This document shows positions 14,034 through 41,808 of a stretch of 64,000 bases of DNA, piece by piece. This DNA is from an uncultured Holophagae bacterium (GTDB taxonomy: Bacteria > Acidobacteriota > Thermoanaerobaculia > Thermoanaerobaculales > Sulfomarinibacteraceae), in NCBI GenBank assembly GCA_963710645.1, contig CAVQBD010000002.1, positions 138,828 through 202,827 of the forward strand, given 5' to 3'. Under the pieces are notes generated by a model. That model searched no databases and was not told the origin of the DNA. It saw nothing but the letters and a program-made list of their open reading frames with translations. Positions within the stretch are counted from its first letter, which is position 1, and every line of letters starts with the position of its first letter. The position numbers and the translations under genes are program-made.

Positions 14034-14276
14034 ATGGCCCAGCCAATTTTCGGGAGGGGTGACTGTCAAAGTTGCCGGTTCTTCATCGACGACCCTCACC
14101 AGTTGGAGAGGGTGCTCATCGGGGTTTTGGCGCTGTCCTCCACCTACGGTTCGACCCGCGGTGACAGCGGCATCTGCACCGTCCATGACACCTTCCAGTA
14201 CCCGTTGACCGACTGCGAACACTACCGTTCCCGAGACCGGTGTTTCGAGGTGGTGGCCGGAGATGTTACGCAATAG
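14034..14276 (+). CDS. Small Cys-rich hypothetical protein (80 aa)
   Basis: ORF 14034..14276 with G/C-rich third codon positions. Motifs CQSCRFF, GICTVHD and DCEHY. It lies directly downstream of a sigma-54-type promoter and overlaps the start of the next gene. Confidence 0.55.
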   Translation: MAQPIFGRGDCQSCRFFIDDPHQLERVLIGVLALSSTYGSTRGDSGICTVHDTFQYPLTDCEHYRSRDRCFEVVAGDVTQ

Positions 14277-18944: not shown

Positions 18945-21379
18945 TTGTCCACCCCTCCGGGGTCTCCACTGGCTATTACGGATCGCAGCCATCGGTGCCC
19001 CTGGAACCTGCGGTGGTGGATCTGGTGGACGCCTTCTTGTCCGCCAATCCGGGGGGTCGGGAGAGGTTGATTCCACTGTTGCAGTGCGTTCAGGACGAAG
19101 TCGGCCACCTACCCGTCGAGGCTCAGGAGCTGGTGGCAGATCGTCTGGCCATGTCACCGATCCAGGTCGCAGGAGTGGTCAGCTTCTACGATCTGTTCAC
19201 CCTCACGCCGCGGGCACCATTCGAAATCCGGGTCTGCGCGGGGACCGCCTGCCACGTTCAGGGTGGCGAAAGGGTGCTCGATGCGCTCACCGACGCTCTT
19301 GGAGTGACTGCCGGTGGCATCTCGGCAGACGGGTTGTTCAACCTCGAGCGAGGCCACTGCATCGGTGCCTGCGCCCTGGCCCCAGCGGTGATGGTCAACG
19401 GAGTTGTCCACGGGCGAATGACGGCCGGATCGGTGCGGCGGCTGGTGAGTCGGTTGCGTCACTCGGTCAAGGCTGCGGCGGAGCGGCCCGGTTCCATGGG
19501 TGCCGTCCGGTTGAGCCCTATGGGAGGCCTGTGGCGGAGCGCCCGTTGGCTGCCGACCGATGCATCCGGTGATGAAATCGGTGTGCGCACGATCCAGATC
19601 TGTTCAGGAAGCGGTTGCCTCGCCAACGGAGCTTTGGAGGTGGCGGAAGCCCTCAAGGCCTGTCTCCGCCGGCTGCGACGGGATGGTGGCCCGCGAGGTG
19701 CTTCGGTGGATCGGGTCAGGATAGAACTTGGAATCACTGGCTGTCGTGGCTTCTGCGCCGCCGGACCCCTGGTGAAGATCCCTGAAGTCGGTGTCCTGTA
19801 CTGCGGTGTAGGGGTCGACGACGCCGACGAGATCATCCAGAAGACGGTGTTCCAGGGTCACGTCATTCCGCGGCTGATATTTGGCGGCACAACTGGCGAC
19901 GGAAGGTACCGCAGCCAAGACGATATTCCCTTCTTCTCCGGCCAACAGCGACATGTGCTCGGGCTCTGCGGTGAAATCGACCCCGAGCGTATCGAACAAT
20001 ACGAATCTCAGGGTGGTTACCTGGCACTCGAACGGGTTGTCCGGGAATTCCGGCCGGACCAGGTGATCCAGCGGGTGATGGAATCCGGGTTGGTGGGTCG
20101 AGGCGGTTCCGGATTTCCGACCGGACGGAAGTGGCAGTTGGTCGCCGACGCCCCGGACGAGACCAAGGTCGTCATCTGCAATGGTGACGAAGGCGATCCC
20201 GGGGCGTTTATGGACCGCAGCTTGATGGAGGGCGACCCCCATTCGGTGCTGGAGGGAATGGCCATAGCGGGCTATGCGGTGGGCGCCCACATCGGCTACG
20301 TCTACCTGCGCGCCTCCTACGAGATGGCGGTGAGGAGAATGTTGCACGCCGTCGCGCAGGCACGTGAGCGCGGTTTTATCGGGGACGATGTCATGGCCAG
20401 CGGATACCACTTCGATGTCCGGATCGTGCAAGGTGGCGGCGCTTTCGTGTGCGGCGAGGAAACCGCGCTCATAGCCTCCATCGAGGGGCGACGAGCCATG
20501 CCCAGGACCCGTCCGCCACATCCTGCGACCCGCGGCCTGTGGGGACACCCCACGTTGATCAACAACGTCGAGACTCTGGCCAACATCCCGCAGATCTTGA
20601 TGCCGAGAAACCAACGGGGAGCCGGCCGCGCTACGACCAAGACGTTTGCGCTCACCGGTGCTGTTCGCAACGTCGGGCTGGTGGAGGTCACTCTGGGCAC
20701 CTCCCTGCGGGAGATCGTGTTCGGCATAGGTGGCGGACTGGCCGAGGGGCGAACATTCAAGGCGGCATGGATCGGCGGACCCGGAGGTGGGTGTCTCGGA
20801 GAGCCCCAACTGGACACCCCCATCGACTATGACTCCCTGGAGGAACAGGGAGTGGCCATGGGTTCGGGTGGGTTGGTGGTGGTGGACGACCGTACCTGCT
20901 CCGTTCGGCTGGCGCGTTTCATGCTCGCGTTTTGCGTCGAAGAATCGTGTGGCAAGTGTTCGCCCTGCCGAATCGGAACGCGGGTTCTGCTCGGTCTGCT
21001 GACTCGCGTCAGCGAGGGTGAGGGGCGGGCGGGAGACCTGGAGAGAATCGAACGCCTCGGAGAACACGTGCACAGGACATCTCTCTGTGGACTGGGACAG
21101 TCGGCCCCAATGCCGGTTCTGACTGCGCTCCGCCATTTCCGTTCGGAGTTCGAATCCCACCTCAACAGCCGCAGTTGCCCCGCCGGGGAGTGCTACCGGT
21201 TGTTGGATCTGCGTATCGATGCCGAATTGTGCGAGGGCTGTGGAGACTGCGTCGTGGTCTGTCCGGAGCAGGCGATCGTGGGAGAACCCGGTTCGAGCTA
21301 CGCCATCGACCTCGACCGATGCAACCGCTGCGGGCTATGTATCCACTGCTGCCCGTACGATGCTATCGAAACAGTGTAA
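18941..21379 (+). CDS. NuoE-like/NuoF-like fusion flavoprotein with an extra 2Fe-2S domain and a C-terminal 2x[4Fe-4S] ferredoxin domain (HydB/HydC- or Bfu-type)
   Basis: GTG 18941 overlaps the upstream TGA. NuoE motif (VCAGTACHVQG...GHCIGACALAP) and a second thioredoxin-like 2Fe-2S (CSGSGCLANG...GCRGFCAAGP). NuoF motifs GRGGSGFPTGRKW, CNGDEGDPGAFMDR and SCGKCSPCR...LCGLG. Ferredoxin motifs CEGCGDCVVVCP and CNRCGLCIHCCP. Confidence 0.8.
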   Translation: MIVHPSGVSTGYYGSQPSVPLEPAVVDLVDAFLSANPGGRERLIPLLQCVQDEVGHLPVEAQELVADRLAMSPIQVAGVVSFYDLFTLTPRAPFEIRVCAGTACHVQGGERVLDALTDALGVTAGGISADGLFNLERGHCIGACALAPAVMVNGVVHGRMTAGSVRRLVSRLRHSVKAAAERPGSMGAVRLSPMGGLWRSARWLPTDASGDEIGVRTIQICSGSGCLANGALEVAEALKACLRRLRRDGGPRGASVDRVRIELGITGCRGFCAAGPLVKIPEVGVLYCGVGVDDADEIIQKTVFQGHVIPRLIFGGTTGDGRYRSQDDIPFFSGQQRHVLGLCGEIDPERIEQYESQGGYLALERVVREFRPDQVIQRVMESGLVGRGGSGFPTGRKWQLVADAPDETKVVICNGDEGDPGAFMDRSLMEGDPHSVLEGMAIAGYAVGAHIGYVYLRASYEMAVRRMLHAVAQARERGFIGDDVMASGYHFDVRIVQGGGAFVCGEETALIASIEGRRAMPRTRPPHPATRGLWGHPTLINNVETLANIPQILMPRNQRGAGRATTKTFALTGAVRNVGLVEVTLGTSLREIVFGIGGGLAEGRTFKAAWIGGPGGGCLGEPQLDTPIDYDSLEEQGVAMGSGGLVVVDDRTCSVRLARFMLAFCVEESCGKCSPCRIGTRVLLGLLTRVSEGEGRAGDLERIERLGEHVHRTSLCGLGQSAPMPVLTALRHFRSEFESHLNSRSCPAGECYRLLDLRIDAELCEGCGDCVVVCPEQAIVGEPGSSYAIDLDRCNRCGLCIHCCPYDAIETV

Positions 21380-21390
21380 TCTCTGGAGCC

Positions 21391-22806
21391 ATGGCGTCTA
21401 CCAGCGAGACTCCGTTTGCCTATATCTTCGCCTCCGAGCTGCACGGGCGTCTGTTGTGGTTCGCGCGGCTGAGGTGGTTCGCGGTTGCGGTGCTGGCCGT
21501 CGCCTCGGTGGTCGGACCCCGATTCGGGTGGTCCGACGTCTGGCCAAGCCTCGCAATCATCGCGGGGCTCGTGGCAGTGTACAACCTGATCTTCACCAAG
21601 CGGCTCCGGAGTTATCTGCTGTGGGACAGGCCGTACCACGATCTACGAGCCGTAGCGATCGTGCAGATGCTGACCGACCTTGGTGCGCTGCTACTGGTGG
21701 TGCACTTCACAGGTGGCTGCCACAGCCCTGTGTTGCCGTTCGTGGTGTTCCACATGGCCATCGGCACGATCATGATCTCCACCCGGCTGATGTACGTGCT
21801 GGCGATGGTGACCATCATGGGCACGCTGGGATTGTTCGCCCTCGAGGGCTGGGTTCTGGAGCACCATCATCCCATCACGCCTCATACTGACGGCCTGGAG
21901 CTGTCATGCGTGCTCAACGCCGCGGTCATGGTGGTTCTGGTCTTCGGCATGGTCTACCTGACGGACACCGTGACCAGTCGTTTCAAGACCCGAGGCATCC
22001 AGCTCCACAAGACCAGCGAGCAGCTCAGATACCGGAAAGAAGAGCTCCAACAGTTGCTCCGCGAGCGTGAAGGCGTGGAGAGGCGCAAGTCTCACTACAT
22101 GCGGATCTCGGCCCACCAGTTGCGGTCGCCCCTCGGTACCATCAAGACTTCTCTGCAGGTCCTGGTGGACGGCATCGTCGATCCCGCCAGTGACGGTGGA
22201 CGGAGACTCATCGTGGGCGCCTCGGAGCGGGTGGATGATTTGCTGGAGATCGTCAACGACCTGCTGGAGCTGGCCAAGATGCGCGAGGGTCGGTTGCGGG
22301 CGCCCTGGGCTCGCCAGGTCTACATCAACCAGGTCCTGGCCGATATTTTTGACGCCATCGGACCGTTGGCCCAGGAGGGCCGGGTGGAGCTGGTGGCTGA
22401 TGTGGATGGTGTGGCGCTGCTCGACTGGGGGGTTCCGCCCGATCTGGTCTACGTCTTCGAGAACCTCATCGGTAACGCCATCAAGTACTCCCTCGAGGGT
22501 GGCGAGGTCCGGGTCAGATTGCGGGTCGAGGATGGCGTGGCGAAGGTCGAAGTGTCGGATCAGGGCATCGGTATTCCGGAAGAATTCTTGGACGATGTCT
22601 TCTTGGAGTTTGTTCGCGCGCCAAATGCCAAGAAACACGCGGCGGGCGGCACCGGTCTCGGCTTGTCCATTGTGCGCGAGGGTGTGGAGATGCACGGCGG
22701 CACCGTCGAGGTGGCAAGCGAGCCTGGCCGCGGCACCACCTTCACCGTCAAGCTCCCGTTGCATTTCGTTCCACCGGAGGTCGAGGATCGCGTCGATTCC
22801 GAATGA
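21391..22806 (+). CDS. Membrane sensor histidine kinase
   Basis: ATG 21391, inner start of ORF 21175..22806. Multi-TM N-terminus, H-box RISAHQLRSPLGT, N-box ENLIGNAIKYS and G-boxes DQGIGIP and GGTGLGLSIV. Confidence 0.85.
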   Translation: MASTSETPFAYIFASELHGRLLWFARLRWFAVAVLAVASVVGPRFGWSDVWPSLAIIAGLVAVYNLIFTKRLRSYLLWDRPYHDLRAVAIVQMLTDLGALLLVVHFTGGCHSPVLPFVVFHMAIGTIMISTRLMYVLAMVTIMGTLGLFALEGWVLEHHHPITPHTDGLELSCVLNAAVMVVLVFGMVYLTDTVTSRFKTRGIQLHKTSEQLRYRKEELQQLLREREGVERRKSHYMRISAHQLRSPLGTIKTSLQVLVDGIVDPASDGGRRLIVGASERVDDLLEIVNDLLELAKMREGRLRAPWARQVYINQVLADIFDAIGPLAQEGRVELVADVDGVALLDWGVPPDLVYVFENLIGNAIKYSLEGGEVRVRLRVEDGVAKVEVSDQGIGIPEEFLDDVFLEFVRAPNAKKHAAGGTGLGLSIVREGVEMHGGTVEVASEPGRGTTFTVKLPLHFVPPEVEDRVDSE

Positions 22807-24471: not shown

Positions 24472-24529
24472 ATCGACTATCTCAATATTCCAGAAGAGAA
24501 TTCGGTATGATGGGCGAGGAGTGCTACTG

Positions 24530-25465
24530 ATGACTATTATTACTTATATGATCGCTTACTGTGGCATCGCAATCTTCCTGGTGGCCTGCGTGGCCCGGTT
24601 CAAGATGTGGTCGAAGATGCCCATGCACCTTCGCTGGGAACTCTACCCGGTGGCCCATGAGGGTGGCGGCAGAGCCGCGTACGGCGGTTCCTACCTCGAG
24701 GAAAGTGATTGGTGGACCAAGCCTCGCAACGTCTCGCTCGTGGGCGAGGCCAAGGTGATGGTGCCTGAAATCCTCTTTCTCGAGGCTCTCAAGGAGCACA
24801 ACAACCAGCTCTGGAAGCGCTCATTCCCGTTCCATTTCGGGCTCTACCTGGTGGCAGCGTGCACCATCCTGATGATGATCAACGGCATTCTGAGCGCCCT
24901 GCTGCCGGGGCTCATGGGTGGAATCATCGGGACGCTCTTCTCCTGGATGATCCCGATCACCGGCTACGCCGGGTTGATCATGGGATTGGTGGGTGCGGTG
25001 GGTCTGATCCAGCGGCGATTCGTCAAACCGCTGCGCGACTACTCGGCGCCCGTCGACGTGCTCAACCTCGTGTTCTTCGTGGTGGCCTTTGGTACGGCCC
25101 TGGTGACAGCACTTTGGGTCGACCACGGCTTCGAGCGGGTCACCGCGTTTGTCGGAAATCTGGTGACATTCCACGTCGCCCCGCTCCCGGGAACAGGGCC
25201 GGAGGTCCTGATGCCCATGATCTCGGCCATCCTGCTCGCTCTTCTGGTGGCCTACATTCCACTCACACACATGTCCCACTTCGTGGGCAAGTATTTCGCA
25301 TATCATTCCATCCGCTGGGCAGATGAACCCAATCTCCGCGGCGGAAAGCAAGAGAAGGTCATTCACGAGTTGTTGGACCAGCCCGTGTCATGGTCGGCCC
25401 CCCATATTCAGGGTGACGGCAAGAAGACGTGGTTGGATGTCGCGACGGAGGATCAGAAGAAATGA
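24530..25465 (+). CDS. dsrM: DsrM-like membrane b-type cytochrome (NarI/HdrE family)
   Basis: ATG 24530 lies 8 nt after a GAGGAG RBS. It is a polytopic membrane protein with the NarI-like N-terminus ...RFKMWSKMPMHLRWELYP. An ATGA overlap couples it translationally to the DsrK-like gene. Confidence 0.75.
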   Translation: MTIITYMIAYCGIAIFLVACVARFKMWSKMPMHLRWELYPVAHEGGGRAAYGGSYLEESDWWTKPRNVSLVGEAKVMVPEILFLEALKEHNNQLWKRSFPFHFGLYLVAACTILMMINGILSALLPGLMGGIIGTLFSWMIPITGYAGLIMGLVGAVGLIQRRFVKPLRDYSAPVDVLNLVFFVVAFGTALVTALWVDHGFERVTAFVGNLVTFHVAPLPGTGPEVLMPMISAILLALLVAYIPLTHMSHFVGKYFAYHSIRWADEPNLRGGKQEKVIHELLDQPVSWSAPHIQGDGKKTWLDVATEDQKK

Positions 25466-27066
25466 AGCAACCTGACAGCGTCAAGGATATTTCGAAGCAT
25501 CCGGGTCAGCCGCTGGCCCAGGTCAAGCCCATGGACCTGGTGCCGCTGCCACCCCCATTCGACAAGCTGGACGAGGAACCGGAGTTCGCTCAGTTGTCGG
25601 AAAAAGCTCGGCAGCAGTACGTTGTGCTTGACGACACCATCGCGGTGAACATCAAGAACCCCGAGACCAAGGAGGAGGAGGATCGCCTCGTCCAGAGCTT
25701 CTTGACCGGCATGAAGAAGTTGTTCACGAAGGAGGACAACTGGACGTTCCTACAGCCGCTCGAGATGTCCATGGAGCATTGCGCCAAGTGCATGACCTGC
25801 TCCGAGGCCTGCCACATCTTCGAGGAGTCGAATGAGAACGAGCTCTATCGGCCCACCTACCGGTCGGAGATCATTCGGCGGATCTACTTCAAGTACATCA
25901 AGAAGGCTTCACCCCTGATCCACGGCGACATCGATCTCAATTGGACCACCGTGGGCCGTCTCATCGAATTGAGCTATCGCTGCAATCTCTGCCGGCGCTG
26001 CGCCCAGACCTGCCCGATCGGTGTGGACAACGCGTTGTTGTCACGGGAGATCCGTAAGATCGCGTCCCAGGAGATGGGAATCGTTCCGAAGGAACTCCAC
26101 GACAATGGATCAGTACTGCAGCTCGAGGTTGGGTCTTCCACAGGGATGACCCCGATGATCGTCAAGGACAACATCGAGTTCATCGACGAGGACACGGCCG
26201 AGCGTACCGGCATCGTGTACGAGACCCCATGGGATGTTGAGGGAGCCGACATTCTGCTCATCCACAACGCGGGAGAAATCATGGCGTGGCCGGAGAACCC
26301 GGGCGCCTTTGGCACCATCTTTGATGCCGCCGGTCTGAGCTGGACCATGTCGTCGGAGATCGTGGCCTATGACGGCATCAATTACGGGGTTTGGTACGAC
26401 GACATGATGTTTGCCAAGGTGGCCGTCAAGCATGCTCAGGCGGCGGCCAAGCTCGGCGTCAAGAAGATCGTGCTCGGCGAGTGTGGCCACGCGCACAAGG
26501 CGCTTACCGTGATCGCCGACAGGGTGCTCACTGGAGACCTCAACATTCCCCGCGAAAGTTCCATGGTGACCCTGCTGGATATCGTCCGGTCGGGGAAGGT
26601 CAAGTTCGACAAGAGCCGGAACGACTTCCCGGTGACCCTTCACGATCCCTGCAATCTCGTTCGACTGATGGGTGTTGTCTCGCCGCAGCGGGAGATCATC
26701 GAGGCGGTGGTGCCCGAGGGCCGGTTCCGGGAGATGGCGCCGCACGGAGTCGAGAACTACTGCTGCGGAGGCGGATCGGGCTTTGCCATCATGTCCGGTC
26801 ACAATTTCGCCGATTGGCGTCACTACATGACCGGTCGCAGGAAGTTTCGCCAGATCCTCGACGCCTTCCAGGGCGAGGAAATGGACATGGACCATCCCAA
26901 GTATCTCTGCGCCCCGTGTTCCAACTGCAAGGGCCAGATCCGCGACATCATCACCTACTACGACGCATGGGAGAAAGCCGGTATCTACTACGGTGGCCTG
27001 GTGGAGTTGATGGTCAACGCCATGGTGGATGCCCAGCCGGGCTTCATCGATTGGGAGTGGCACTAG
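25462..27066 (+). CDS. dsrK: DsrK-like Fe-S/CCG heterodisulfide-reductase-type subunit (HdrD family)
   Basis: Ferredoxin motifs CAKCMTCSEACH and CNLCRRCAQTCP. CCG-type motifs GECGHAHK, HDPCNLVR, YCCGGGSGF and CAPCSNCKGQ. Confidence 0.8.
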   Translation: MKQPDSVKDISKHPGQPLAQVKPMDLVPLPPPFDKLDEEPEFAQLSEKARQQYVVLDDTIAVNIKNPETKEEEDRLVQSFLTGMKKLFTKEDNWTFLQPLEMSMEHCAKCMTCSEACHIFEESNENELYRPTYRSEIIRRIYFKYIKKASPLIHGDIDLNWTTVGRLIELSYRCNLCRRCAQTCPIGVDNALLSREIRKIASQEMGIVPKELHDNGSVLQLEVGSSTGMTPMIVKDNIEFIDEDTAERTGIVYETPWDVEGADILLIHNAGEIMAWPENPGAFGTIFDAAGLSWTMSSEIVAYDGINYGVWYDDMMFAKVAVKHAQAAAKLGVKKIVLGECGHAHKALTVIADRVLTGDLNIPRESSMVTLLDIVRSGKVKFDKSRNDFPVTLHDPCNLVRLMGVVSPQREIIEAVVPEGRFREMAPHGVENYCCGGGSGFAIMSGHNFADWRHYMTGRRKFRQILDAFQGEEMDMDHPKYLCAPCSNCKGQIRDIITYYDAWEKAGIYYGGLVELMVNAMVDAQPGFIDWEWH

Positions 27067-27070
27067 GTCA

Positions 27071-27126
27071 GTGACTCGTGAATAGTAAATAGTGAATAGT
27101 GAATAGTGAATAGTGAGTCGAGAATA
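27071..27126. repeat. Heptamer tandem array, GTGAATA family, 8 units
   Basis: It starts 5 nt after the dsrK TAG stop and belongs to the same unit family as 4875-4916, 22 kb away. Confidence 0.95.
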
Positions 27127-27154
27127 GTCGGAAGCTGACAGCATCAAATGATCA

Positions 27155-27236
27155 GAGACCGCCCACCCGCGTGGGCGGTTTTTTCAATGGCCCCGCCCTG
27201 GCCGATCCAAGAACGAAGAACGAAGAACGAAGATCC
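27155..27236 (+). repeat. 75-82-nt direct repeat, copy 1 (terminator hairpin, CAATGGCCCCGCCCTGGCCGATCC, then AAGAACG array)
   Basis: Apart from the AAGAACG unit count, I saw no difference from 27501-27575. This copy has three full AAGAACG units; copy 2 has two. Confidence 0.9.
27159..27184 (+). terminator. Rho-independent terminator downstream of dsrK (copy 1)
   Basis: CCGCCCAC-ccgc-GTGGGCGG gives an 8-bp GC stem with a 4-nt loop, followed by TTTTTT. Confidence 0.8.
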
Positions 27237-27500: not shown

Positions 27501-27575
27501 GAGACCGCCCACCCGCGTGGGCGGTTTTTTCAATGGCCCCGCCCTGGCCGATCCAAGAACGAAGAACGAAGATCC
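27501..27575 (+). repeat. 75-82-nt direct repeat, copy 2
   Basis: See copy 1 at 27155-27236. Confidence 0.9.
27505..27530 (+). terminator. Rho-independent terminator (copy 2; identical hairpin to 27159-27184)
   Basis: Same CCGCCCACCCGCGTGGGCGG hairpin and T6, inside the second copy of a 75-82-nt direct repeat. Confidence 0.7.
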
Positions 27576-27813
27576 CCCATCCGCTCGAGGAGCGCGTTCG
27601 GAGAAAGTCGTTCTTCGGAGGTGCCTGGACTCCTGACGTTGTGGAGCAGCCGTCTCGGCTGCAATTCTTGCCCCAATTGAATGCATAAATGCGGGCCGGA
27701 GGATTGCTCCACAGTGACTCTCCGGTCTTGTACGTGTCTCGTATCTGCGCGGGCGGGTGGGCGGGGGTCTCATAGCTTATAGCGCAGGGCTTATAGCCTG
27801 AACGGCCGGGTGG

Positions 27814-27848: not shown

Positions 27849-28017
27849 GGATGGCCCGCGGCCAGCGGTTCATGGCTTGCGACCGGAGCAAACTGCGATC
27901 CCCGACGGTCGTCTTCCATTGCAACTTGCGACGGTGCCGCTCGTGGATTGCCGGGAAGTCAGCCCGAAATATTGATTTTAAGAGACTTGTGCATAATTTC
28001 ACGAAATCTAGGAAAAT

Positions 28018-28033
28018 GGCACGCCGGTTGCTG
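28018..28033 (+). promoter_or_regulatory. Sigma-54 (-24/-12) promoter candidate for the beta-propeller and hmc-like operon
   Basis: TGGCACGCCGGTTGCT matches the consensus at every conserved position (GG 28019-28020, GC 28031-28032). It lies about 60 nt upstream of ATG 28092, with an AT-rich tract just upstream. Confidence 0.7.
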
Positions 28034-28091
28034 TTTCTCATCGTGGAGGGAGGGATTTGCCCTCCGCTTGGCACGGAGAAAGGGAGTGGCC

Positions 28092-29354
28092 ATGGTTGAC
28101 CTGGAGGGCTGGAATTGGGAGGAGGGACGGAGGGCCGTCGCCGACGTTTCCCGACTGCGGGAGCAGTTTGCAGATGTCCATGAGTTTGCGGTCAGCGGCG
28201 ACGGAGAGGTCATCGCCGCGCCGGTGGTCGACGAGTCGGGTGGCTTTGGTGTCTGGGTCAACGGCGCACTCTGGGAGGGAGAGTTCGAGAAAGCGTGGCA
28301 TCTCGTTTTCACTCCGGATCAGCGGTTGACGGCGTTGGTCCGCGTCGACGATGAGTGGACTCTGGCGGTGGACGGAGAGCTCTGGGATCAACGCTGGGAA
28401 TTTGCCTGGAACCCGACCTTCAGCCGCGATGGTCGGGTGATTGCGTTGCAGATCAAGGACAACATGGAGTACTCGGTTGCCGTCAACGGAACGCCGTGGG
28501 ACTGCCGCTTTCCCTCGAGCCGCGGTCTGGCGGTGAGCGACGACGGCAACACCGTGGCCGCGCTGGTTCAGGTGGTTCCGTTGGCAGAGGCGGACATCGT
28601 CGGCTTCATGGATGGAACCTGGTCCATCGCGGTCAACGGCGAGCCGTGGCAACAGAAATTCATCAACGTCTACGGCCTCGCGATCAGCGAAGACGGCTCG
28701 GGCGTTGCCGCCGAGGTCCGGCTTGACATCTGCAAGTACACGCTGGCTGAGAACTCACGGCCCTGGGAGAGCCGCTTCGGGTGCGTGTGGGAGCCCGCCT
28801 ATCGAAACGGCAGCCGGAATCTCCTGGCGCCGGTGCGGGTCGAGGGCTCGTGGACAATCGCGGAGAACGGGAGCCCCATCTGGTCGAGTCGCTTCATGCA
28901 GCTGTGGAACCTGCGGCTGAGTCAGGACGGAAGGCGGCTCGCCGCGGTGGCCGCGGGGGCTTTTGGCTCGTGGACGGTGGTGGTCGACGATCGGCCGTGG
29001 CCGGTCTCGTTCAACGATTTGATCCTGCCGCCGGTCTTCTCGCCAGACGGCCGAAGGGTCGCCGCAGGAGTCCGCCATGACGGCGTGTGGAGCGTGGCCG
29101 TCGACGGTACCCGCTGGCAGGAGACCTACGACATGGTCTGGGATCCGGTCTTTGCGCCCGACGGTGCGCGGGTGGTGGCGAAGGTGGAGCGCGACAGGAA
29201 GTTTGCCGTCGCGGTCGACGGCGAGGTCCGCGGCCCGTGGTTCGAGGCGATGTGGGAACCGGTGGTGAGCCCCGATGGGCAGCGGCTGCTGGTACGGGCC
29301 GTCGAGGACGGTGTCTACACCCGCCGGGTCGTTTCGTTCGACGGTCTCGGCTGA
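28092..29354 (+). CDS. Cytoplasmic repeat protein, about 10 PD40/WG-like beta-propeller blades
   Basis: ATG 28092 follows a GAAAGGGAG RBS; no signal peptide. The roughly 40-aa unit FSPDGrrvAa.v..dg.WsvAVdG..W...fd.vWdPv recurs about 10 times (for example FSRDGRVIALQ, VSDDGNTVAAL, FSPDGRRVAAG, FAPDGARVVAK, VSPDGQRLLVR). Confidence 0.7.
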   Translation: MVDLEGWNWEEGRRAVADVSRLREQFADVHEFAVSGDGEVIAAPVVDESGGFGVWVNGALWEGEFEKAWHLVFTPDQRLTALVRVDDEWTLAVDGELWDQRWEFAWNPTFSRDGRVIALQIKDNMEYSVAVNGTPWDCRFPSSRGLAVSDDGNTVAALVQVVPLAEADIVGFMDGTWSIAVNGEPWQQKFINVYGLAISEDGSGVAAEVRLDICKYTLAENSRPWESRFGCVWEPAYRNGSRNLLAPVRVEGSWTIAENGSPIWSSRFMQLWNLRLSQDGRRLAAVAAGAFGSWTVVVDDRPWPVSFNDLILPPVFSPDGRRVAAGVRHDGVWSVAVDGTRWQETYDMVWDPVFAPDGARVVAKVERDRKFAVAVDGEVRGPWFEAMWEPVVSPDGQRLLVRAVEDGVYTRRVVSFDGLG

Positions 29355-29369: not shown

Positions 29370-30017
29370 ATGTTCGACTTCATCAGCGGTCCGCTCGTTT
29401 GGATCGCCTTCGCCGGCCTCTTTGGAGGGCTCGCCTACCGGCTGGTCACGATGGCTGCACTGGCGCGGCGGGAGCGGGTGGTCTACCCGACGCTGGACGC
29501 CAAGTACGGCACCCGCTCACTGCTCCATTGGCTGATCCCCTTCGCGGGAAGAAAGACTCGTCTGCACCCTGCCTACACCTTGGTGTCATACGCCTTTCAC
29601 GTCTGTCTGCTGGTGACGCCGTTGTTTGCCGCCGGGCACGTCCTGCTCTTCAAGCGGTCATGGGGATTCGGCTGGTGGACCCTGCCCGACGCGGTCGGCG
29701 ACGGGATGACCCTCGTGGTGGTCTTCGCCTGCCTGTTTTTTATGATCCGGCGCCTGCTGCAGCCTGAGGTTCGCAACGTCAGCGACGCCTCAGACTTCCT
29801 CCTCGCGGGCGTGGTCCTGGTTCCATTCGCGACGGGGTTCCTCGCCCACCGGCAGTGGCTCTCCTACGAACCGATGCTCATCATCCACGGTCTTTCCGGC
29901 GTGCTGGCCCTGTTGCTGATCCCGTGGACGCGTCTGGTGCACCTGCTGTGGTTCACCTTCACCCGCGCTTTCATGGGCTCCGAGTTCGGGGCCGTCCGTC
30001 ACGCGAGGGATTGGTAA
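29370..30017 (+). CDS. hmcE: HmcE-like membrane b-type cytochrome (NarI/HdrE/DsrM family)
   Basis: 215 aa and polytopic, with His residues inside TM helices (AFHVCLL...AAGHVLL...IIHGLSG...LVHLLW). It sits directly upstream of an HdrD-like subunit. RBS GAGGAGGG. Confidence 0.65.
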   Translation: MFDFISGPLVWIAFAGLFGGLAYRLVTMAALARRERVVYPTLDAKYGTRSLLHWLIPFAGRKTRLHPAYTLVSYAFHVCLLVTPLFAAGHVLLFKRSWGFGWWTLPDAVGDGMTLVVVFACLFFMIRRLLQPEVRNVSDASDFLLAGVVLVPFATGFLAHRQWLSYEPMLIIHGLSGVLALLLIPWTRLVHLLWFTFTRAFMGSEFGAVRHARDW

Positions 30018-30059: not shown

Positions 30060-31379
30060 ATGGCTGATCTGCAGGACATCCAGGTCATGGATCCCGGCGT
30101 TGACGACAATATCGCCAAACTGACGCCGGAGCGTATCGAGACCACTATCAACAGGGTGCTGACCGACGAGTGCGGCGCGCGGCTGCGGGTCTATCTCGAC
30201 ACGTGTGTCCACTGCGGCCTGTGTGCCGAGGCGTGCCAGAGCTACGTCTCCCGCAACGGCGACCCGGACTACGCGCCGGTGGCCAAGGTCAAGGACACGT
30301 TGTGGGAAATGGTCAAGCGCAAGGGTCGCGTGGACGGCGAATTCCTCCACAACGCGGCCCGAATCGCCTTCATTGACTGCGGGGCGTGCCGCCGCTGCAG
30401 CATGTACTGCCCATTTGGGATCGACATCGCCTATCTGATCATGACCGTGCGTCGGATCCTCAACCTGCTCGGGGTGGTTCCCCAGTACCTTCAAGACACC
30501 ACCAACAGCCACGCCGCCACCATGAACCAGATGTGGGTCCAGCAGGATGACTGGATCGACACCCTGATGTGGCAGGAGGAGGACGCCCAGGAGGAGCTGG
30601 CGGGCACCAGGATCCCGCTCGACAAGGAGGGCGCCGACATCATGTACTCGGTGATCGGTCCCGAACCCAAGATCCTCGCCCAGCTGATCGCCAACATGGC
30701 GATCATCTTCAAGGTGGCCGGCGCCGACTGGACCATGCCGTCCACCGACGGCTGGGACAACTCGAACATGGCCATGTACTCGGGCGACTTCGAAACCATG
30801 GGACGGGTCGAGCGGCTGCACTGGGAACGTGCCATGCAGCTCAAGGTCAAACGGGTGGTGATGGGCGAGTGCGGCCACGCCTACCGCGGGGCGGTTTACG
30901 ACGGACCGAGGTGGCTTGGTTGGACCAAGCCACCCATTCCCATGGTGCACGCCGTCGAGTACTACTACGAGATCATCAAGAGCGGTCGGCTGAAGATCGC
31001 CCGAAAGATCGAAGAGCCGGTCACGGTGCAGGATCCCTGCAACATCGTCCGCGGCCGCGGGCTTCACGACAAACTGAGGTACGTCGTCAACGCGATCTGC
31101 GAGGACTTCCGGGACATGGATCCCCGTTACGAGCACAACTACTGCTGTCAGGCCGGAGGAGGGCTGATCAATTGCGGCCCACCGTGGAAGGTGTCTCGGA
31201 TGAAGAGCAACAAGATCAAGGCGGAACAGATCGTCGGCACCGGGGCCCACACGGTCATCACCCCGTGCCACAACTGCCACAGCGGCATCGAAGACATCAT
31301 CGGTTACTACAAGCTCGGCGCCCATGTGTCGTTCATCAGCGAGCTCCTGGTCAAGACCATCGAGCTTCCGGAAGCCTGA
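30060..31379 (+). CDS. hmcF: HmcF-like Fe-S/CCG protein (HdrD/DsrK family)
   Basis: Motifs CVHCGLCAEACQ, CGACRRCSMYCP, GECGHAYRG, QDPCNIVR, YCCQAGGG and TPCHNCHSG. Confidence 0.7.
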   Translation: MADLQDIQVMDPGVDDNIAKLTPERIETTINRVLTDECGARLRVYLDTCVHCGLCAEACQSYVSRNGDPDYAPVAKVKDTLWEMVKRKGRVDGEFLHNAARIAFIDCGACRRCSMYCPFGIDIAYLIMTVRRILNLLGVVPQYLQDTTNSHAATMNQMWVQQDDWIDTLMWQEEDAQEELAGTRIPLDKEGADIMYSVIGPEPKILAQLIANMAIIFKVAGADWTMPSTDGWDNSNMAMYSGDFETMGRVERLHWERAMQLKVKRVVMGECGHAYRGAVYDGPRWLGWTKPPIPMVHAVEYYYEIIKSGRLKIARKIEEPVTVQDPCNIVRGRGLHDKLRYVVNAICEDFRDMDPRYEHNYCCQAGGGLINCGPPWKVSRMKSNKIKAEQIVGTGAHTVITPCHNCHSGIEDIIGYYKLGAHVSFISELLVKTIELPEA

Positions 31380-31382
31380 GGG

Positions 31383-32903
31383 GTGGTGGGAATGTCCGCA
31401 CGCAATTGGTATCTGGCGGTTTGGTGTGTTGTGCTGTTGCTCGCGGCCACGGTTGGGGTCTCGGCCGGGGAGGTCGGGGCTTTGCGGGCCATCGGCCCGT
31501 CGATCATCGTCATGGACAACATTGGCGCCTTCGACGTCATGGAGCGGCCATCGGTGGAGTTCGACCATGCGGCACACGCCGATGCGATGAAGTCTGAGGG
31601 CTGCACGGCGTGCCATCGGGTCGAGAACGAACGGCTGATGCCCAAACTGTCCGGGATTCCCAACGTCGGCGACCGAGATGAGTTGCTCGACGGCTTTCAT
31701 GGGAGGTGTATCGGTTGCCACTCCGAGCGCGCCGATGCGGCCCAGTCCAGCGGTCCGGTGACCTGCGGCGAGTGCCACGTCCGTCGGCCGGACGGTGTCT
31801 CGACTCGGGCGGCCATGTCCTTCGATTACTCGCTCCACGCACGCCACGCGCAGGCCTACCCCGAGCGGTGCGAGGAATGCCATCACGTCTACGACGAGCA
31901 GCAGCAGAAGTTGGTTTACGTCAAGGGCGAAGAAGATGCGTGTCGCTCGTGTCACGGAGAGTCGGACGTGAATGATACGCCCTCGCTCGAAAATGCCTCC
32001 CACCGAGGCTGCATCTCGTGCCACCTGAATCGGCAGGCGGCCGAGCTCGAGGCCGGCCCGGTGCGGTGCGTCGGGTGCCATGATCTCGATCACCAGCTTG
32101 CGATCAAGACCCTCGACGCGGCCGAGATTCCCCGCCTGCTGCGAGGCCAGCCGGACAGCGTCTGGATCGTCGACGACGAGGCTCGGACCAGGGTCGTGGC
32201 CTTTGATCACAAGGGACACGAGTCGGTCACCACCTCGTGCTCCACCTGCCATCACCAGACGATGAAGCCCTGTGGTGAGTGCCACACGTTGGTTGGCTCA
32301 ACGGAGGGTGGTGGGGTCACCATGGCGGTGGCTTATCACCTCGATGGCTCCGAACACAGCTGTGTGGGGTGCCATACGCTCGAAACTCGCGAGCAGGAGT
32401 GCTCCGGCTGCCACGCCCAGCCCTCGGTGGCACCGGCCGAAAGTACTTGCACGGTGTGTCATGCGGGTCCGGTCGCTGGACCCGAGGTGGCCGAGATGCC
32501 GGTGCCGGTTGCTCAACAATCGGAAATGGCGGCTCTTCCCCAGATCTCGGAATCCTACCCGGAGACGGTGGAGATCGCCGTGCTGGTGGACCGATACCAG
32601 TCCTCCAAGCTGCCCCACGCCAAGATTGTGGCCCGGCTCGACGCAGCGGTACGGGCCAGCGATCTGGCCGGTCGATTCCACCAGAATGTGGAGACCTTGT
32701 GCGCGGGCTGTCACCACCACAGTCCGGCGGGGATCCGGCCGCCGCCGTGTCGCGCGTGCCACGCCGAGGCTGCCGCCACCCGGGACATGCCCGGACTCAA
32801 GGTTGCCTACCACCGGCAGTGCATGGGCTGCCATGCCGAGATGGGGATCAAGGCTCAGAGCTGTACGGATTGCCACGCAGAGAGGGAGGGCGAAGAGTCA
32901 TGA
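31383..32903 (+). CDS. hmcA: Periplasmic 16-heme cytochrome c (HmcA-like)
   Basis: Signal peptide, and 16 CXXCH motifs counted in the translation: CTACH, CIGCH, CGECH, CEECH, CRSCH, CISCH, CVGCH, CSTCH, CGECH, CVGCH, CSGCH, CTVCH, CAGCH, CRACH, CMGCH, CTDCH. Confidence 0.85.
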   Translation: MVGMSARNWYLAVWCVVLLLAATVGVSAGEVGALRAIGPSIIVMDNIGAFDVMERPSVEFDHAAHADAMKSEGCTACHRVENERLMPKLSGIPNVGDRDELLDGFHGRCIGCHSERADAAQSSGPVTCGECHVRRPDGVSTRAAMSFDYSLHARHAQAYPERCEECHHVYDEQQQKLVYVKGEEDACRSCHGESDVNDTPSLENASHRGCISCHLNRQAAELEAGPVRCVGCHDLDHQLAIKTLDAAEIPRLLRGQPDSVWIVDDEARTRVVAFDHKGHESVTTSCSTCHHQTMKPCGECHTLVGSTEGGGVTMAVAYHLDGSEHSCVGCHTLETREQECSGCHAQPSVAPAESTCTVCHAGPVAGPEVAEMPVPVAQQSEMAALPQISESYPETVEIAVLVDRYQSSKLPHAKIVARLDAAVRASDLAGRFHQNVETLCAGCHHHSPAGIRPPPCRACHAEAAATRDMPGLKVAYHRQCMGCHAEMGIKAQSCTDCHAEREGEES

Positions 32904-33937
32904 GCATCACACGCCGGTCCATGATCGGAGGCCTGGTTGGTGGGGCGGCCGCCATGGCGGCCGAGTCCGCCGATGCCGGCTCCCATAAGCATTTCGAGGG
33001 CTATCCGGGCCGCTACGGGCTCCTCCACGACACCACCCTGTGTGTGGGCTGCCGGTCCTGCGAGATGGCCTGTGGCGAGGTCAACGATCTGCCCGCCCCA
33101 GAGGCTCCCATTGGTGACCAGCGTGTCTTTGAGGACACGCGGCGGACCACTGCCACCCATCTGACGGTCGTCAACCGCTATGTTGAACGAAGCGGCAATC
33201 AGCCGGAGGTGTTCCGCAAGCTCCAGTGCATGCACTGCAACGAGCCGTGCTGCGCCACCGTGTGCCCGGTTGGAGCATTCACAAAAACCCCCGAGGGACC
33301 GGTGCTCTATGACGCCGAGGTCTGCATGGGTTGCCGCTACTGCATCATGGCCTGCCCCTACAACGCCTTGGCCTATGAGTATGACAATCCGCTGACGCCA
33401 AGGGTCATGCGCTGCACCATGTGCTATCAGCGGATCGTGGAGGGCCAGGTTCCGGGTTGTGCCGAAGCCTGTCCAACAGGCGCCATCACCTTCGGCCGGC
33501 GCGACGAACTCATTAAAGTGGCCAGAGAGAGGATCCGCAAGGAACCCGGCCGCTACATCGACCACATCTTCGGTGAGAACGAGTTCGGCGGCACGAGCTG
33601 GCTGCTGCTGGCCGGCGTGCCCTTCAGTCAGCTCGATCTGCACGAGGGTCTGACCTATGAGCCCCTGCCGGCCATCGCGACCAGCTATCTCAGCGTCGTG
33701 CCACTGGTGATCACGATCTACCCGGGCCTGCTCCTCGGTCTGCACGCCTTCAGCAAACGCCAGGAGGCGGTGGCCCGCAAAGAGCGGGATGAGGCGGTGG
33801 CCGAAGCCCTGAAAAAGGCCGACGACGACGCGAAACAGAAGCTCACCAAGGCCGCCGAGAAGGCGAAGAAGGACCAGCAACGGGCGGTTGACATGGCGGT
33901 TAAAAAGGCGCTCGAGGAGCACGGGGGTGGAGCATGA
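32900..33937 (+). CDS. hmcB: HmcB-like Tat-exported 4x[4Fe-4S] protein (DsrO/PsrB/NrfC family) with a C-terminal TM anchor
   Basis: ATG 32900, with an ATGA overlap to hmcA. Twin-arginine leader MSITRRSMIGGLVGG. Four Cys clusters (CVGCRSCEMAC, CMHCNEPCCATVCP, CMGCRYCIMACP, CTMCYQR...CAEACP) and a late hydrophobic helix. Confidence 0.8.
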   Translation: MSITRRSMIGGLVGGAAAMAAESADAGSHKHFEGYPGRYGLLHDTTLCVGCRSCEMACGEVNDLPAPEAPIGDQRVFEDTRRTTATHLTVVNRYVERSGNQPEVFRKLQCMHCNEPCCATVCPVGAFTKTPEGPVLYDAEVCMGCRYCIMACPYNALAYEYDNPLTPRVMRCTMCYQRIVEGQVPGCAEACPTGAITFGRRDELIKVARERIRKEPGRYIDHIFGENEFGGTSWLLLAGVPFSQLDLHEGLTYEPLPAIATSYLSVVPLVITIYPGLLLGLHAFSKRQEAVARKERDEAVAEALKKADDDAKQKLTKAAEKAKKDQQRAVDMAVKKALEEHGGGA

Positions 33938-35121
33938 GTCAGGCCGGTGTCGAGAGTCTGCAGCCGGCGCCGTCAAAGCCCGGTCTGCTGACTCCGTTCA
34001 ACGTGGTGTCGGGGATCATATTGATCGGTGGTGCGGCGATCCTGGCCCTCCGATTCATCAAGGGGTTGGAGGCGACGACCAACCTCACCGACACCTATCC
34101 GTGGGGGCTGTGGATCGGCTTCGATGTCATGAGTGGGGTCGCGCTGGCAGCCGGTGGCTTCGTCACTTCGACTGCCGTTTACCTCTTCGGCATGAAGGAG
34201 TACAAGCCCATCGTCCGGCCGGCGATCCTGACGGGATTCCTCGGTTATTTCCTGGTGGTCCTCGGGCTGCTTGCGGATCTCGGACGCCCCTGGCGCCTTC
34301 CCTATCCCTTTATCAAACAGGCGGGCCCGACCTCACCGTTATTCGAGGTGGCGCTCTGCGTGGCGTTGTACCTGACGGTGTTGTTCATCGAGACGACGCC
34401 GGCCGCGCTGGAGTGGCTCGGTCTGAAACGGTGGCGCAGGGTGGTGGGCAGCCTGACCATCGCGCTCACCGTTTTCGGCTTGATATTGTCCACCATGCAT
34501 CAGTCCACCCTCGGGGCCATGTACATGGCGGCGCCCACCAAGGTGCACCCGCTTTGGTACTCGGCCCACATGCCGGTGCACTTCTTCGTGTCGGCGGTGG
34601 CGGCGGGCATCGGCATGGTTATCGTGGAAGGGGCCATCTCCCACCGGGCCTTCCACCATCAAGTACAGATCACCCAGGATCAATTCAGGGATATCAACAT
34701 CGGACTGGCCAAGGCCGGTGCGGTGGCTCTGGCTGTCTATTTCGCCGTCAAGGTGGTCGGTCTCGCCATCGAGGACGAATGGGCGTTGTTGGGCACGGGC
34801 TGGGGTGCGTGGTTTCTTCTGGAGATCCTCGGTTTTGTTCTGCTGCCCTGCATCCTCTTTGCGGTTGCATACCGGGAAAGGAATGTGGTGCTGGCCCGAG
34901 TCGCGGGCGTCCTCACGGTTGTGGGCGTCGTCCTGAACAGATTCAATATCACGTTTGTCGTATTCAACTGGAATTACACGACCGAGCCCAGGTACTACCC
35001 GAACTGGATGGAGATCTGGGTGACCGTCGCGTTCATCACATTCGCGGTGGTGGTGTTCAAGTTGATCGCGAGCTACATGCCGATCATGTACGAACACCCC
35101 GACTGGAAAGGCGAGCACTGA
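33934..35121 (+). CDS. hmcC: HmcC-like NrfD/PsrC/DsrP-family integral membrane quinone-interacting subunit
   Basis: ATGA overlap with hmcB. 395 aa and polytopic, with the NrfD-type N-terminus ...TYPWGLWIGFDVMSGVALAAGGF. Confidence 0.8.
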   Translation: MSQAGVESLQPAPSKPGLLTPFNVVSGIILIGGAAILALRFIKGLEATTNLTDTYPWGLWIGFDVMSGVALAAGGFVTSTAVYLFGMKEYKPIVRPAILTGFLGYFLVVLGLLADLGRPWRLPYPFIKQAGPTSPLFEVALCVALYLTVLFIETTPAALEWLGLKRWRRVVGSLTIALTVFGLILSTMHQSTLGAMYMAAPTKVHPLWYSAHMPVHFFVSAVAAGIGMVIVEGAISHRAFHHQVQITQDQFRDINIGLAKAGAVALAVYFAVKVVGLAIEDEWALLGTGWGAWFLLEILGFVLLPCILFAVAYRERNVVLARVAGVLTVVGVVLNRFNITFVVFNWNYTTEPRYYPNWMEIWVTVAFITFAVVVFKLIASYMPIMYEHPDWKGEH

Positions 35122-35131
35122 GGAGATGACA

Positions 35132-35278
35132 ATGTACACCTTGTTCGATTTCCTGACCCACACCAAAGGCATCGGGTACATCGTGGCCGGGTTGCTGCTG
35201 GTGAGCTTTATTCCGTTCTGGCGCTTCCTCACAGAGCGGGAGACGAACGACGACGCACTGTCGCAGCGGTCCCATTGA
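35132..35278 (+). CDS. Small single-TM protein (48 aa), HmcD-like by position and size
   Basis: Below the 60-aa ORF-track cutoff; found by reading the DNA. AGGAG at 35121-35125, ATG at 35132 (also at 35126), TGA at 35276-35278. Translation MYTLFDFLTHTKGIGYIVAGLLLVSFIPFWRFLTERETNDDALSQRSH contains one hydrophobic helix. Confidence 0.55.
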   Translation: MYTLFDFLTHTKGIGYIVAGLLLVSFIPFWRFLTERETNDDALSQRSH

Positions 35279-35291
35279 AACGGAGGCAACC

Positions 35292-35657
35292 ATGGGTCAC
35301 ACGGTTCTTGTGGTGGACGACGAGCCGGATGTCAGGACATTTCTGATGGCCGTGCTCAAAAAGAGGGGATACGAGACCTTGTCCGCCTCCGATGGCCGGG
35401 AGGCTTTCGAGGTCTTGCAGCGTGAGAAACCGGACTTGGTCATCCTGGACCTCCAAATGCCCAATCAGACCGGGACTGACTTTTTCCGCCGACTGACCAA
35501 GGACAAGGAACTCAGTCAGACGCCGGTGATCGTCGTCAGTGGACTTGCCGGACGCCACCTGGCCTTCAAGGAGCCGGTGGCTGTCTTTGATAAACCGATC
35601 GACCCCGACGAGTTCGGCGAAATGGTCGACAAAACCCTCGGCGTGGACGAGGGGTGA
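35292..35657 (+). CDS. Single-domain CheY-like response regulator
   Basis: VLVVDDEPDVR...DLVILDLQMPNQTG...VIVVSG...DKPIDPDEF. Confidence 0.9.
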   Translation: MGHTVLVVDDEPDVRTFLMAVLKKRGYETLSASDGREAFEVLQREKPDLVILDLQMPNQTGTDFFRRLTKDKELSQTPVIVVSGLAGRHLAFKEPVAVFDKPIDPDEFGEMVDKTLGVDEG

Positions 35658-35691
35658 CGGAGAGGGTCAACCCCTCGGAAGGGAGGCGACG

Positions 35692-36504
35692 ATGTCTCTT
35701 TTGGAGAAAAAGGACTATAAGCACGAGAACCCTCAGGTTCGACTCAAGGCGGTGGAAGAAATGAGTGACCCGGAGATGCTGGTCTCGGTGGCCTGCACAG
35801 ATGACTCTCCCCGGGTCCGGCTGACGGCCGTCGCAAAACTGAAGGACGATCAGACGCTGGAACGAATCGCCCGTGGCGCGGAGTCCCTCGATGCTCGTCT
35901 GGTTGCGGTGGAGAGGATCTTCTCGCAGGGGGTCATCGCTGACTTGTTGAAGGACCCCAAGAACTTCGAGCTCATGTCGGTGTGCTTTTCACGCATCAGC
36001 GATCGCCGCATCATCGAGTCCATCGCCCAGGACGAAGCCTACGGTGGGGTCGTCCGTCGGATGGCGGTGGAGTACTTTGCCGATTCGGGATACCTGGACG
36101 AGGTCGCGGAAGGCGCCGTGGCTGAGATTCCGGAGACCACAGCAGATCAGAGGGTGGAAGCATTTGTCGAAGTCTACGGTGGGGGCCTGCGGGGAGTCCG
36201 CGCCATCGGCCGATTCCGCCGTTCGGAAAAGGCCCTCAAGGCACTGGGGACAATCGCCCGCAAGGGTGGCGAGACAGGTGGACTGGCGATCGAATATCTG
36301 TGTTCGGCCCTGGCCAGCCCCAACCCCAAACTGGCTGACTGTGCTGCGGATGAACTCGGGGTTCTCAAGGATTCCGAGGCGGTGGACAGTTTGATCCGTG
36401 CGATGGACAATCCCAACCTGCGAGAGCCGGTTCGGCGCGTGCTTCGCAGGATCGGGACGCCTGAAGCCGTCGCCGCTCTCGGCGACGAATCGTGGATCAG
36501 CTAG
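35692..36504 (+). CDS. HEAT-repeat protein
   Basis: ATG 35692 follows a GGGAGG RBS. Repeated ...NPQVRLKAVEEM.., DDSPRVRLTAVAKL.., SLDARLVAVERI.. and NPNLREPVRRVLRRIG segments typical of PBS-lyase/HEAT-like repeats. Confidence 0.7.
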   Translation: MSLLEKKDYKHENPQVRLKAVEEMSDPEMLVSVACTDDSPRVRLTAVAKLKDDQTLERIARGAESLDARLVAVERIFSQGVIADLLKDPKNFELMSVCFSRISDRRIIESIAQDEAYGGVVRRMAVEYFADSGYLDEVAEGAVAEIPETTADQRVEAFVEVYGGGLRGVRAIGRFRRSEKALKALGTIARKGGETGGLAIEYLCSALASPNPKLADCAADELGVLKDSEAVDSLIRAMDNPNLREPVRRVLRRIGTPEAVAALGDESWIS

Positions 36505-36525
36505 ACCGCATGCAGGGAGAGCATC

Positions 36526-36900
36526 ATGGCGAAGAAAATTCTGATCATCGATGACGAGAAGGACATGCAGGTCTATCTCGGCACTCTGTTTCGGAAGGCG
36601 GGTTTCGAGACCAAGACCGCCTCAAATGGCGAGGAGGGCCTCAAGCTGGCCTTGACCTTCGAACCGGATCTCATCACGCTCGACGTGTTGATGCCGAAAC
36701 AGTCCGGGGTCAAGGCCTACCGAGGTCTCAGGACCTCCTCGCAGACCGCCTCGATTCCCATCGTCGTGCTGACCGGGCTCACCCGGCTGGATGACTTTTT
36801 TGGAGATCTCGGCGATTTGCGGAAACCGGACGCTCTGGTGGAGAAACCCATCGACCGGGACACCTTCCTGACCACGATCGAAGGACTCCTCAACGGCTGA
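36526..36900 (+). CDS. Single-domain CheY-like response regulator
   Basis: KILIIDDEKDMQ...DLITLDVLMPKQSG...IVVLTG...VEKPIDRDTF. Confidence 0.9.
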   Translation: MAKKILIIDDEKDMQVYLGTLFRKAGFETKTASNGEEGLKLALTFEPDLITLDVLMPKQSGVKAYRGLRTSSQTASIPIVVLTGLTRLDDFFGDLGDLRKPDALVEKPIDRDTFLTTIEGLLNG

Positions 36901-36983
36901 TTTTCTATCAGATAGCCCGGGGATTTTCGCGGGGCCGAAGACTGCGACCTCATCGTCGGCGTTGGGCCAACATCCGATCGTGG

Positions 36984-40062: not shown

Positions 40063-40134
40063 TCAACTTCCGGCCAGGGAATTTTGTCACCGCCGTTCGT
40101 CGCCATGGCGGTGGCTGCGCGGCCCAAGTCTTTG

Positions 40135-41664: not shown

Positions 41665-41808
41665 TCTCGAACCTCCCCGAGCGACTCCTTCACATCGAAA
41701 ATCAACAGCCCCTGCATGGCGACCCCATCGCTTTCTGTTCAGCCCAGCGGCTCGATTGTACTCCCGGTCGTGGGATTTCCCGCAACAGACAAATGGTTAG
41801 GCTGTGGC

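Follow-up and report, generated by a model that had tools for sequence, protein, structure and literature searches.

The tryptophan-rich protein of 420 amino acids encoded by the first gene of a cytochrome operon in the window (the whole stretch of DNA analysed, 64,000 nt) is, judging from curated family profiles, almost certainly TmcD. We put at about 70% the probability of our overall explanation, in which it is a non-redox peripheral subunit that binds TmcB and TmcC on their cytoplasmic side, most likely for docking or support. A sequence-only reading of the same DNA had described a cytoplasmic PD40-like propeller within an hmc-like operon and had remarked that the Hmc operon known from Desulfovibrio lacks such a component. 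The protein falls in the named TmcD family, that of the fourth subunit of Tmc, the sister complex of Hmc. The propeller is thus no unknown accessory: it was named before, is covered by a curated model and has a biochemical precedent, and the value of the family assignment is mainly corrective.

Family assignment, start codon and localisation

On the NCBIfam equivalog NF045725 (electron transfer complex subunit TmcD) the protein scores 494 bits against a cutoff of 440, in an alignment that runs nearly end to end (residues 6-415 against positions 2-411 of the 412 in the profile). Homologs from Desulfovibrio oxyclinae, Salidesulfovibrio and Humidesulfovibrio, which carry the name 'electron transfer complex subunit TmcD', are 38-42% identical to it, and its best relatives (65-72% identity) come from MAGs labelled Acidobacteriota, Thermoanaerobaculia or Candidatus Sulfomarinibacteraceae, which makes this group the probable origin of the window. 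When 1.84 billion representative sequences were searched with the TmcD profile, around 50 full-length proteins of 415-440 amino acids were matched in a single stretch, and below these the matches grade into generic multi-repeat proteins; judged from these sequences, the family appears compact and of one architecture. Pereira and colleagues reportedly isolated Tmc from D. vulgaris in 2006, with TmcD co-purifying with TmcA, TmcB and TmcC, and characterised this subunit as rich in tryptophan and cytoplasmic. Four subunits, TmcABCD, make up the Tmc complex, for which an origin from Hmc is considered possible (PMC5109826). Its subunit D in D. vulgaris, DVU0266 (44.9 kDa), has been found in the proteome together with TmcB and TmcC, at intermediate peptide and coverage figures (PMC10920352). 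A published AlphaFold model of TmcD comes without functional interpretation (PMC10553843). DVU0266 belongs to the same equivalog family and length class as the protein studied here, and is likewise tryptophan-rich, cytoplasmic and encoded by the first gene, before tmcC and tmcB. In contrast to the TmcD proteins of the Desulfovibrionaceae, to which it is around 38-42% identical, the present protein belongs to a separate clade with operons that carry hmcA-B-C-D in place of the tetrahaem tmcA.

The reading frame of tmcD is also open upstream, as far as a GTG at 27810 that would add a 94-codon extension. We take ATG 28092 as the start because the corresponding Met is common to all 38 aligned homologs, around six residues ahead of a conserved W-x-W-E, because the extension is not hydrophobic (maximum Kyte-Doolittle (KD) value 0.79) and holds a promoter-like element, and because a Shine-Dalgarno-like GGGAG precedes the ATG. 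GTG 27810 was ruled out on the homolog starts and on the promoter-like element. TmcD contains 24 tryptophans (5.7% of its 420 residues), three cysteines and three histidines, and its N-terminus is acidic (net charge -2 across the first 25 residues) and not hydrophobic. No signal peptide or transmembrane-like segment was found from hydropathy, N-terminal charge and homolog starts: the top 19-residue Kyte-Doolittle mean is 1.71, around residue 155, in the only stretch above 1.6, and this peak corresponds to a beta-strand plus a charged loop containing E and D. TmcD is predicted to be a soluble cytoplasmic protein, in agreement with the earlier description.

Repeats and predicted fold of TmcD

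The protein consists of ten repeats of around 38 amino acids (residues 29-68, 69-105, 106-143, 144-193, 194-232, 233-271, 272-311, 312-349, 350-387 and 388-420) that follow the consensus W-x-P-x-F-S-P-D-G ... V-A-A ... W-x-V-A-V-D-G ... W. When each repeat was left out in turn and scored with an HMM built from the other nine, it reached 24-52 bits, whereas 200 shuffled versions of it stayed at 10.9 bits or below, confirming the build of roughly 40-residue units that had been read from the sequence. The PD40-like propeller is likewise supported as a prediction: Pfam PD40 gives 29.1 bits on the whole protein (cutoff 20.9), the AF2 model is all-beta (pLDDT 95.5, pTM 0.89), and Foldseek matches this model to WD40/PD40 propellers with probability 1.0. 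The TolB model scores a negligible 12.3 bits. The TmcD profile matches the Nostoc WD40 protein 2YMU at E = 1e-27, and the PDB matches obtained by Foldseek and profile are propellers only; TM-scores are 0.49 or lower against every solved chain, the best chains being 9bln_U and 3wj9_B, which we take to be 9-bladed eIF3b. An extra N-terminal strand at residues 12-18 probably completes blade 10 in the model, and the original wording of roughly ten blades fits the ten repeats plus this strand. We infer from the model that TmcD would form a single 10-bladed ring.

TmcD matches PD40/WD40 propellers such as 2YMU, TolB and eIF3b in repeat length, and its predicted blades appear to follow the same four-strand pattern. 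It differs from these in having ten repeats and two family-specific features, a W-x-W near the N-terminus and, within blade 4, an insertion of 11 residues (L-x-E-A-D ... F-x-x-G) that is modelled as a short helix. Unlike propellers such as TolB, it has no catalytic or export feature. The ten blades are conserved to about an equal degree in the alignment, in which no conserved His was found and only one Cys, conserved at 67%; a metal or cluster site in TmcD is therefore unlikely. Cofactor propellers of the cd1, NosZ or PQQ type were considered and ruled out, as their conserved ligands are absent.

The operon, its surroundings and related loci

The operon predicted from the sequence is tmcD-tmcC-tmcB-hmcA-hmcB-hmcC-hmcD (Table 1). 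Its earlier description as hmc-like holds for hmcA-B-C-D, but not for the genes then called 'hmcE' and 'hmcF', which are Tmc-type: the HmcE model gives 173.9 bits (cutoff 275) on the tmcC product, as against 266.7 for TmcC, and the HmcF model gives 401 bits (cutoff 750) on the tmcB product, as against 706 for TmcB. The HmcB and HmcC models are the best matches for their genes despite scores below the cutoffs. The 15-nt gap between tmcD and the HmcE-like gene, noted before, contains a strong ribosome-binding site (GAGAGGAGGGAGC), and tmcD, tmcC and tmcB lie in a common reading frame, separated by stop codons. Stop and start overlap in an ATGA both between hmcA and hmcB and between hmcB and hmcC. 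The hmcD frame lies four bases past hmcC and was absent from the list of the sequence-only reading; it completes the HmcA-D set, adjoins hmc genes in 47 related loci (tblastn), and its product has one hydrophobic stretch that from its sequence is apparently membrane-spanning. HmcD of D. vulgaris is 5.8 kDa (PMC10920352).

Table 1. Features of the tmcD locus, with positions numbered from the first letter of the window
Feature	Position	Strand	Description
Sigma-54-type -24/-12 element	28017..28031	+	TGGCACGCCGGTTGC (TGGCAC-N5-TTGC); sequence; 75 nt upstream of tmcD ATG
Shine-Dalgarno-like GGGAG	28082..28086	+	sequence; 5 nt before tmcD ATG
tmcD	28092..29354	+	ATG 28092, TGA 29354; 420 aa, Trp-rich, ten repeats; predicted cytoplasmic beta-propeller
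tmcC	29370..30017	+	215-aa membrane cytochrome b (NarI/HmcE-like); NF045723 TmcC 266.7 bits, cutoff 240
tmcB	30060..31379	+	439-aa HdrD/DsrK-like Fe-S protein; NF045724 TmcB 706.4 bits, just under cutoff 735
hmcA	31383..32903	+	506-aa periplasmic cytochrome c, 16 CxxCH; NF045713 HmcA 468.4 bits, cutoff 400
hmcB	32900..33937	+	345-aa Fe-S protein, RR-containing N-terminus; NF045715 HmcB 408.7 bits, just under cutoff 420
hmcC	33934..35121	+	395-aa NrfD-like integral membrane protein; NF045714 HmcC 531.6 bits, just under cutoff 550
hmcD	35126..35278	+	50 aa; NF045712 HmcD 57 bits, cutoff 34
Single-domain response regulator	35292..35657	+	best NCBIfam match NF045717 DVU0259_DivK, 133.9 bits, cutoff 160

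The cluster shares with HmcABCDEF of D. vulgaris the 16-haem HmcA, HmcB, the NrfD-like HmcC, the small HmcD and homologs of HmcE and HmcF. It differs from it in its permuted gene order, which begins with the E/F-like genes, in the better match of the products of these genes to the TmcC and TmcB models than to those of HmcE and HmcF, and in the presence of an extra subunit, TmcD; the earlier remark that the classical Desulfovibrio Hmc operon lacks such a propeller is correct for HmcABCDEF. The NrfD-like HmcC is confined to Hmc, as against Tmc (bioRxiv 10.1101/005694). In contrast to TmcABCD, the tetrahaem type II cytochrome c3 TmcA is absent here, and the gene after tmcB encodes the 16-haem HmcA instead. 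Some syntrophic sulfate reducers are without TmcA (PMC10553843).

The sequence-only reading had placed the propeller gene behind a sigma-54 promoter, and the element is indeed present upstream of it; its action as a promoter is our inference from the sequence. Of 75 related loci, 18 have a match of at least 9/10 to the sigma-54-type element ahead of tmcD, as against 5 of 425 control windows. All 18 loci are acidobacterial, and the element lies 46-91 nt upstream in all but one of them (L057, an outlier with 147 nt). Between 27066 and 28092, in the intergenic spacer that precedes tmcD, 72 nt are also repeated perfectly in direct orientation (27155-27226 and 27501-27572), and both copies carry a terminator-like hairpin followed by a T-run (CCGCCCACCCGCGTGGGCGG-TTTTTT), as well as tandem arrays of 6-7-nt units, AGTGAAT x8.4 at 27070-27128 and others of AAGAACG, CCCGTT and GAACCCG. 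Among acidobacterial relatives the spacer upstream of tmcD varies widely in length, from around 0.35 to 6.8 kb.

Several neighbouring genes also encode redox proteins. Just upstream of tmcD, at 24521-27066 on the plus strand, are a DsrM-like membrane protein, with no family match, and a DsrK-like CCG protein (DsrK model 321 bits, cutoff 400). This pair, which from its sequence appears to be a second HdrDE-like module, is kept upstream of tmcD in acidobacterial loci, with 80-90% identity in the K-like protein, and loci labelled Gemmatimonadaceae and Elusimicrobiota also have it close to the cluster. Further upstream (14263-21376, plus strand) are three large redox genes. One product binds FAD/NAD and has Fer4 and two CCG domains, as an HdrA/HdrD-like fusion; another is a molybdopterin protein similar to NuoG and formate dehydrogenase; and the third is a NuoE-NuoF-like fusion that carries additional ferredoxin domains. 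A histidine kinase gene follows (21175-22806). The three redox genes may supply electrons, as a cytoplasmic input module, to the pathway served by the tmc/hmc operon. On the minus strand, 38968-45414 encodes an exporter-like protein of the TauE/SafE family and a SulP sulfate permease of 1201 aa in which STAS domains are repeated, as would suit a host that metabolises sulfur.

A set of regulatory genes (35292-38510) follows the operon. The response regulator that opens it has the DVU0259 family as its best match, and a homolog follows the cluster in many related loci; in D. vulgaris, DVU0259 lies a few genes from tmc (DVU0263-0266 in the numbering of PMC10920352). After it come a HEAT-repeat protein (35539/35689-36504), a 124-aa ORF (36526-36900) that may be a second receiver, given a second regulator match at the same offset in related loci, and, on the minus strand, a HAMP histidine kinase (36984-38510). 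Most acidobacterial loci have both receiver matches, in unchanged order.

A scan of species-representative genomes yielded 319 loci encoding a TmcD relative, 80 of which were kept for a neighbourhood survey. The gene next after tmcD was tmcC in all loci with enough contig (77/77), and tmcB was next after tmcC in all of those with more room downstream (71/71); the genes that follow are hmc genes in 61 of the 80. Homologs of the propeller gene therefore do track redox genes, a point for which the sequence-only reading had proposed a survey of this kind. In seven of the 80 loci, from Desulfobacterales and unclassified Deltaproteobacteria MAGs, tmcB is followed by a cytochrome ORF of around 130-150 amino acids with 3-4 CxxCH motifs, which in size and motif number is consistent with TmcA. 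Among the loci surveyed, a small 4-haem gene is present in Desulfobacterales- and Desulfovibrio-type loci only. D. oxyclinae has the order tmcD-tmcC-tmcB-tmcA, with no adjacent regulator, and the first position of tmcD is therefore the normal Tmc arrangement, the alphabetical names notwithstanding. The MAGs with hybrid tmc/hmc clusters bear labels, which can be wrong, of Acidobacteriota, Myxococcota, Ignavibacteriales, Zixibacteria, Gemmatimonadaceae, Elusimicrobiota, Nitrospirae, Phycisphaerae, Spirochaetales, Desulfomonilaceae and Syntrophaceae. Variants of the cluster occur: a Nitrospirae MAG (L068, 4277-15379) has two tandem copies of tmcD-tmcC-tmcB, the second followed by hmcA-B-C; two Elusimicrobiota MAGs (L048 and L070) have the order tmcD-C-B-hmcB-C-(D)-hmcA; and four Desulfomonilaceae/Syntrophaceae loci (L044, L050, L061 and L074) have an hmcD-like ORF between hmcA and hmcB rather than after hmcC.

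A midpoint-rooted neighbour-joining tree of TmcD contains two clades, one of Desulfovibrio-type and Desulfobacterales-type sequences with TmcA, and the other of sequences followed by HmcABC, with the 420-aa TmcD in its acidobacterial branch. In the 41 loci with all six large genes, pairwise distances of TmcD correlate best with those of TmcC (r = 0.88) and TmcB (r = 0.87), which fits inheritance of the three as one unit but is no proof of contact, as shared descent alone would also give such correlations.

Role of TmcD and meaning of the hybrid cluster

The association of TmcD with TmcC and TmcB is maintained with either periplasmic module, TmcA or HmcABCD, which supports a job on the cytoplasmic side. 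The TmcB encoded here has two CxxCxxCxxxC ferredoxin motifs and a CCG domain together with GECGH, the motif of the DsrK-type catalytic Cys; presence of the catalytic Cys of DsrK (T/GECGH) in TmcB has been reported (bioRxiv 10.1101/2023.08.03.551783). Mutants of tmc in D. alaskensis G20 are defective in H2 oxidation, and DsrC is a proposed, not an established, partner of Tmc (bioRxiv 10.1101/005694). In the mechanism that we propose, TmcD would be translated first from the operon as a cofactor-free cytoplasmic propeller of ten PD40/WD40-like repeats and would assemble as a peripheral subunit on the cytoplasmic TmcC/TmcB face. Electrons would pass between the periplasmic 16-haem HmcA and the catalytic non-cubane cluster in TmcB; on the way they would be carried by HmcB, by HmcC, which faces the quinone, and by the haems b in TmcC. 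DsrC would be the likely cytoplasmic partner at the cluster. TmcD itself would move no electrons, and may instead provide a rigid docking or stabilising platform that either holds TmcB on TmcC or presents a partner protein to TmcB. That TmcD is a stable subunit of the complex we regard as quite probable, while the docking mechanism is offered tentatively; the behaviour of TmcD in the seven-gene context that lacks TmcA is extrapolated by analogy with Desulfovibrio.

Beta-propellers serve as assembly factors in other membrane complexes, as do Ycf48 and BamB, and on these precedents TmcD might be a transient assembly or maturation factor, acting for example in the insertion of haem b into TmcC or the docking or loading of the non-cubane cluster of TmcB, rather than a permanent subunit. 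This is unlikely, given that TmcD is counted among the four subunits of Tmc (PMC5109826) and that the intermediate peptide and coverage figures at which it appears in the D. vulgaris proteome were obtained alongside TmcB and TmcC (PMC10920352). A sensor or regulatory adaptor, a role that the sequence-only reading had raised, would link the redox state of the complex to the DVU0259-family regulator, the second receiver and the histidine kinases, and the occurrence of a DVU0259-like receiver after the cluster in many loci, like the histidine kinases that flank it in the window, would suit such a link. The regulators, however, vary in presence and position while TmcD stays fixed beside tmcC and tmcB, the tmcDCBA cluster of D. 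oxyclinae has none next to it, and Pfam and NCBIfam find no known signalling domain in TmcD, such that the suggestion is left without support and we consider it improbable.

Least credible, and in our view very nearly negligible, is that tmcD is an unrelated passenger gene, as had also been proposed, or encodes an exported TolB-like periplasmic propeller with a mis-called start. The Pfam PD40 match is weak, the match to TolB is negligible, and a longer upstream ORF does exist; but the invariable linkage of tmcD to tmcC, and of tmcC to tmcB, refutes a passenger. An exported protein is ruled out by the start shared by the 38 homologs, which have no N-terminal extension, and by the lack of a hydrophobic N-terminus in TmcD or of hydrophobicity in the upstream extension, within which the promoter element lies. 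A non-redox docking or scaffold subunit on the TmcB/TmcC cytoplasmic face is the explanation that we favour overall. The present data narrow the role of TmcD to a structural or docking one that is non-redox, through the ten repeats, the lack of conserved Cys and His, the family-specific blade-4 loop and the strict linkage to TmcC and TmcB with either periplasmic module.

The seven-gene cluster can, with rather less than even confidence, be viewed as encoding a distinct respiratory complex in which a full Hmc periplasmic and quinone module is joined to a Tmc-type cytoplasmic module and TmcD. The cluster itself is widespread beyond the classical sulfate reducers, and the complex would be the evolutionary link to, or the ancestor of, both the Tmc of Desulfovibrio, reduced to TmcA on the periplasmic side, and Hmc, from which TmcD would have been lost. 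No published description of a seven-gene Tmc/Hmc hybrid operon was found in the limited literature that could be searched, and the widespread occurrence of this operon may be the one point that is new. That one TmcD clade goes with the full HmcABCD set across many phyla is relevant to the older view of Tmc as a simplified Hmc, and the hybrid clade is a natural system in which to ask what TmcD does.
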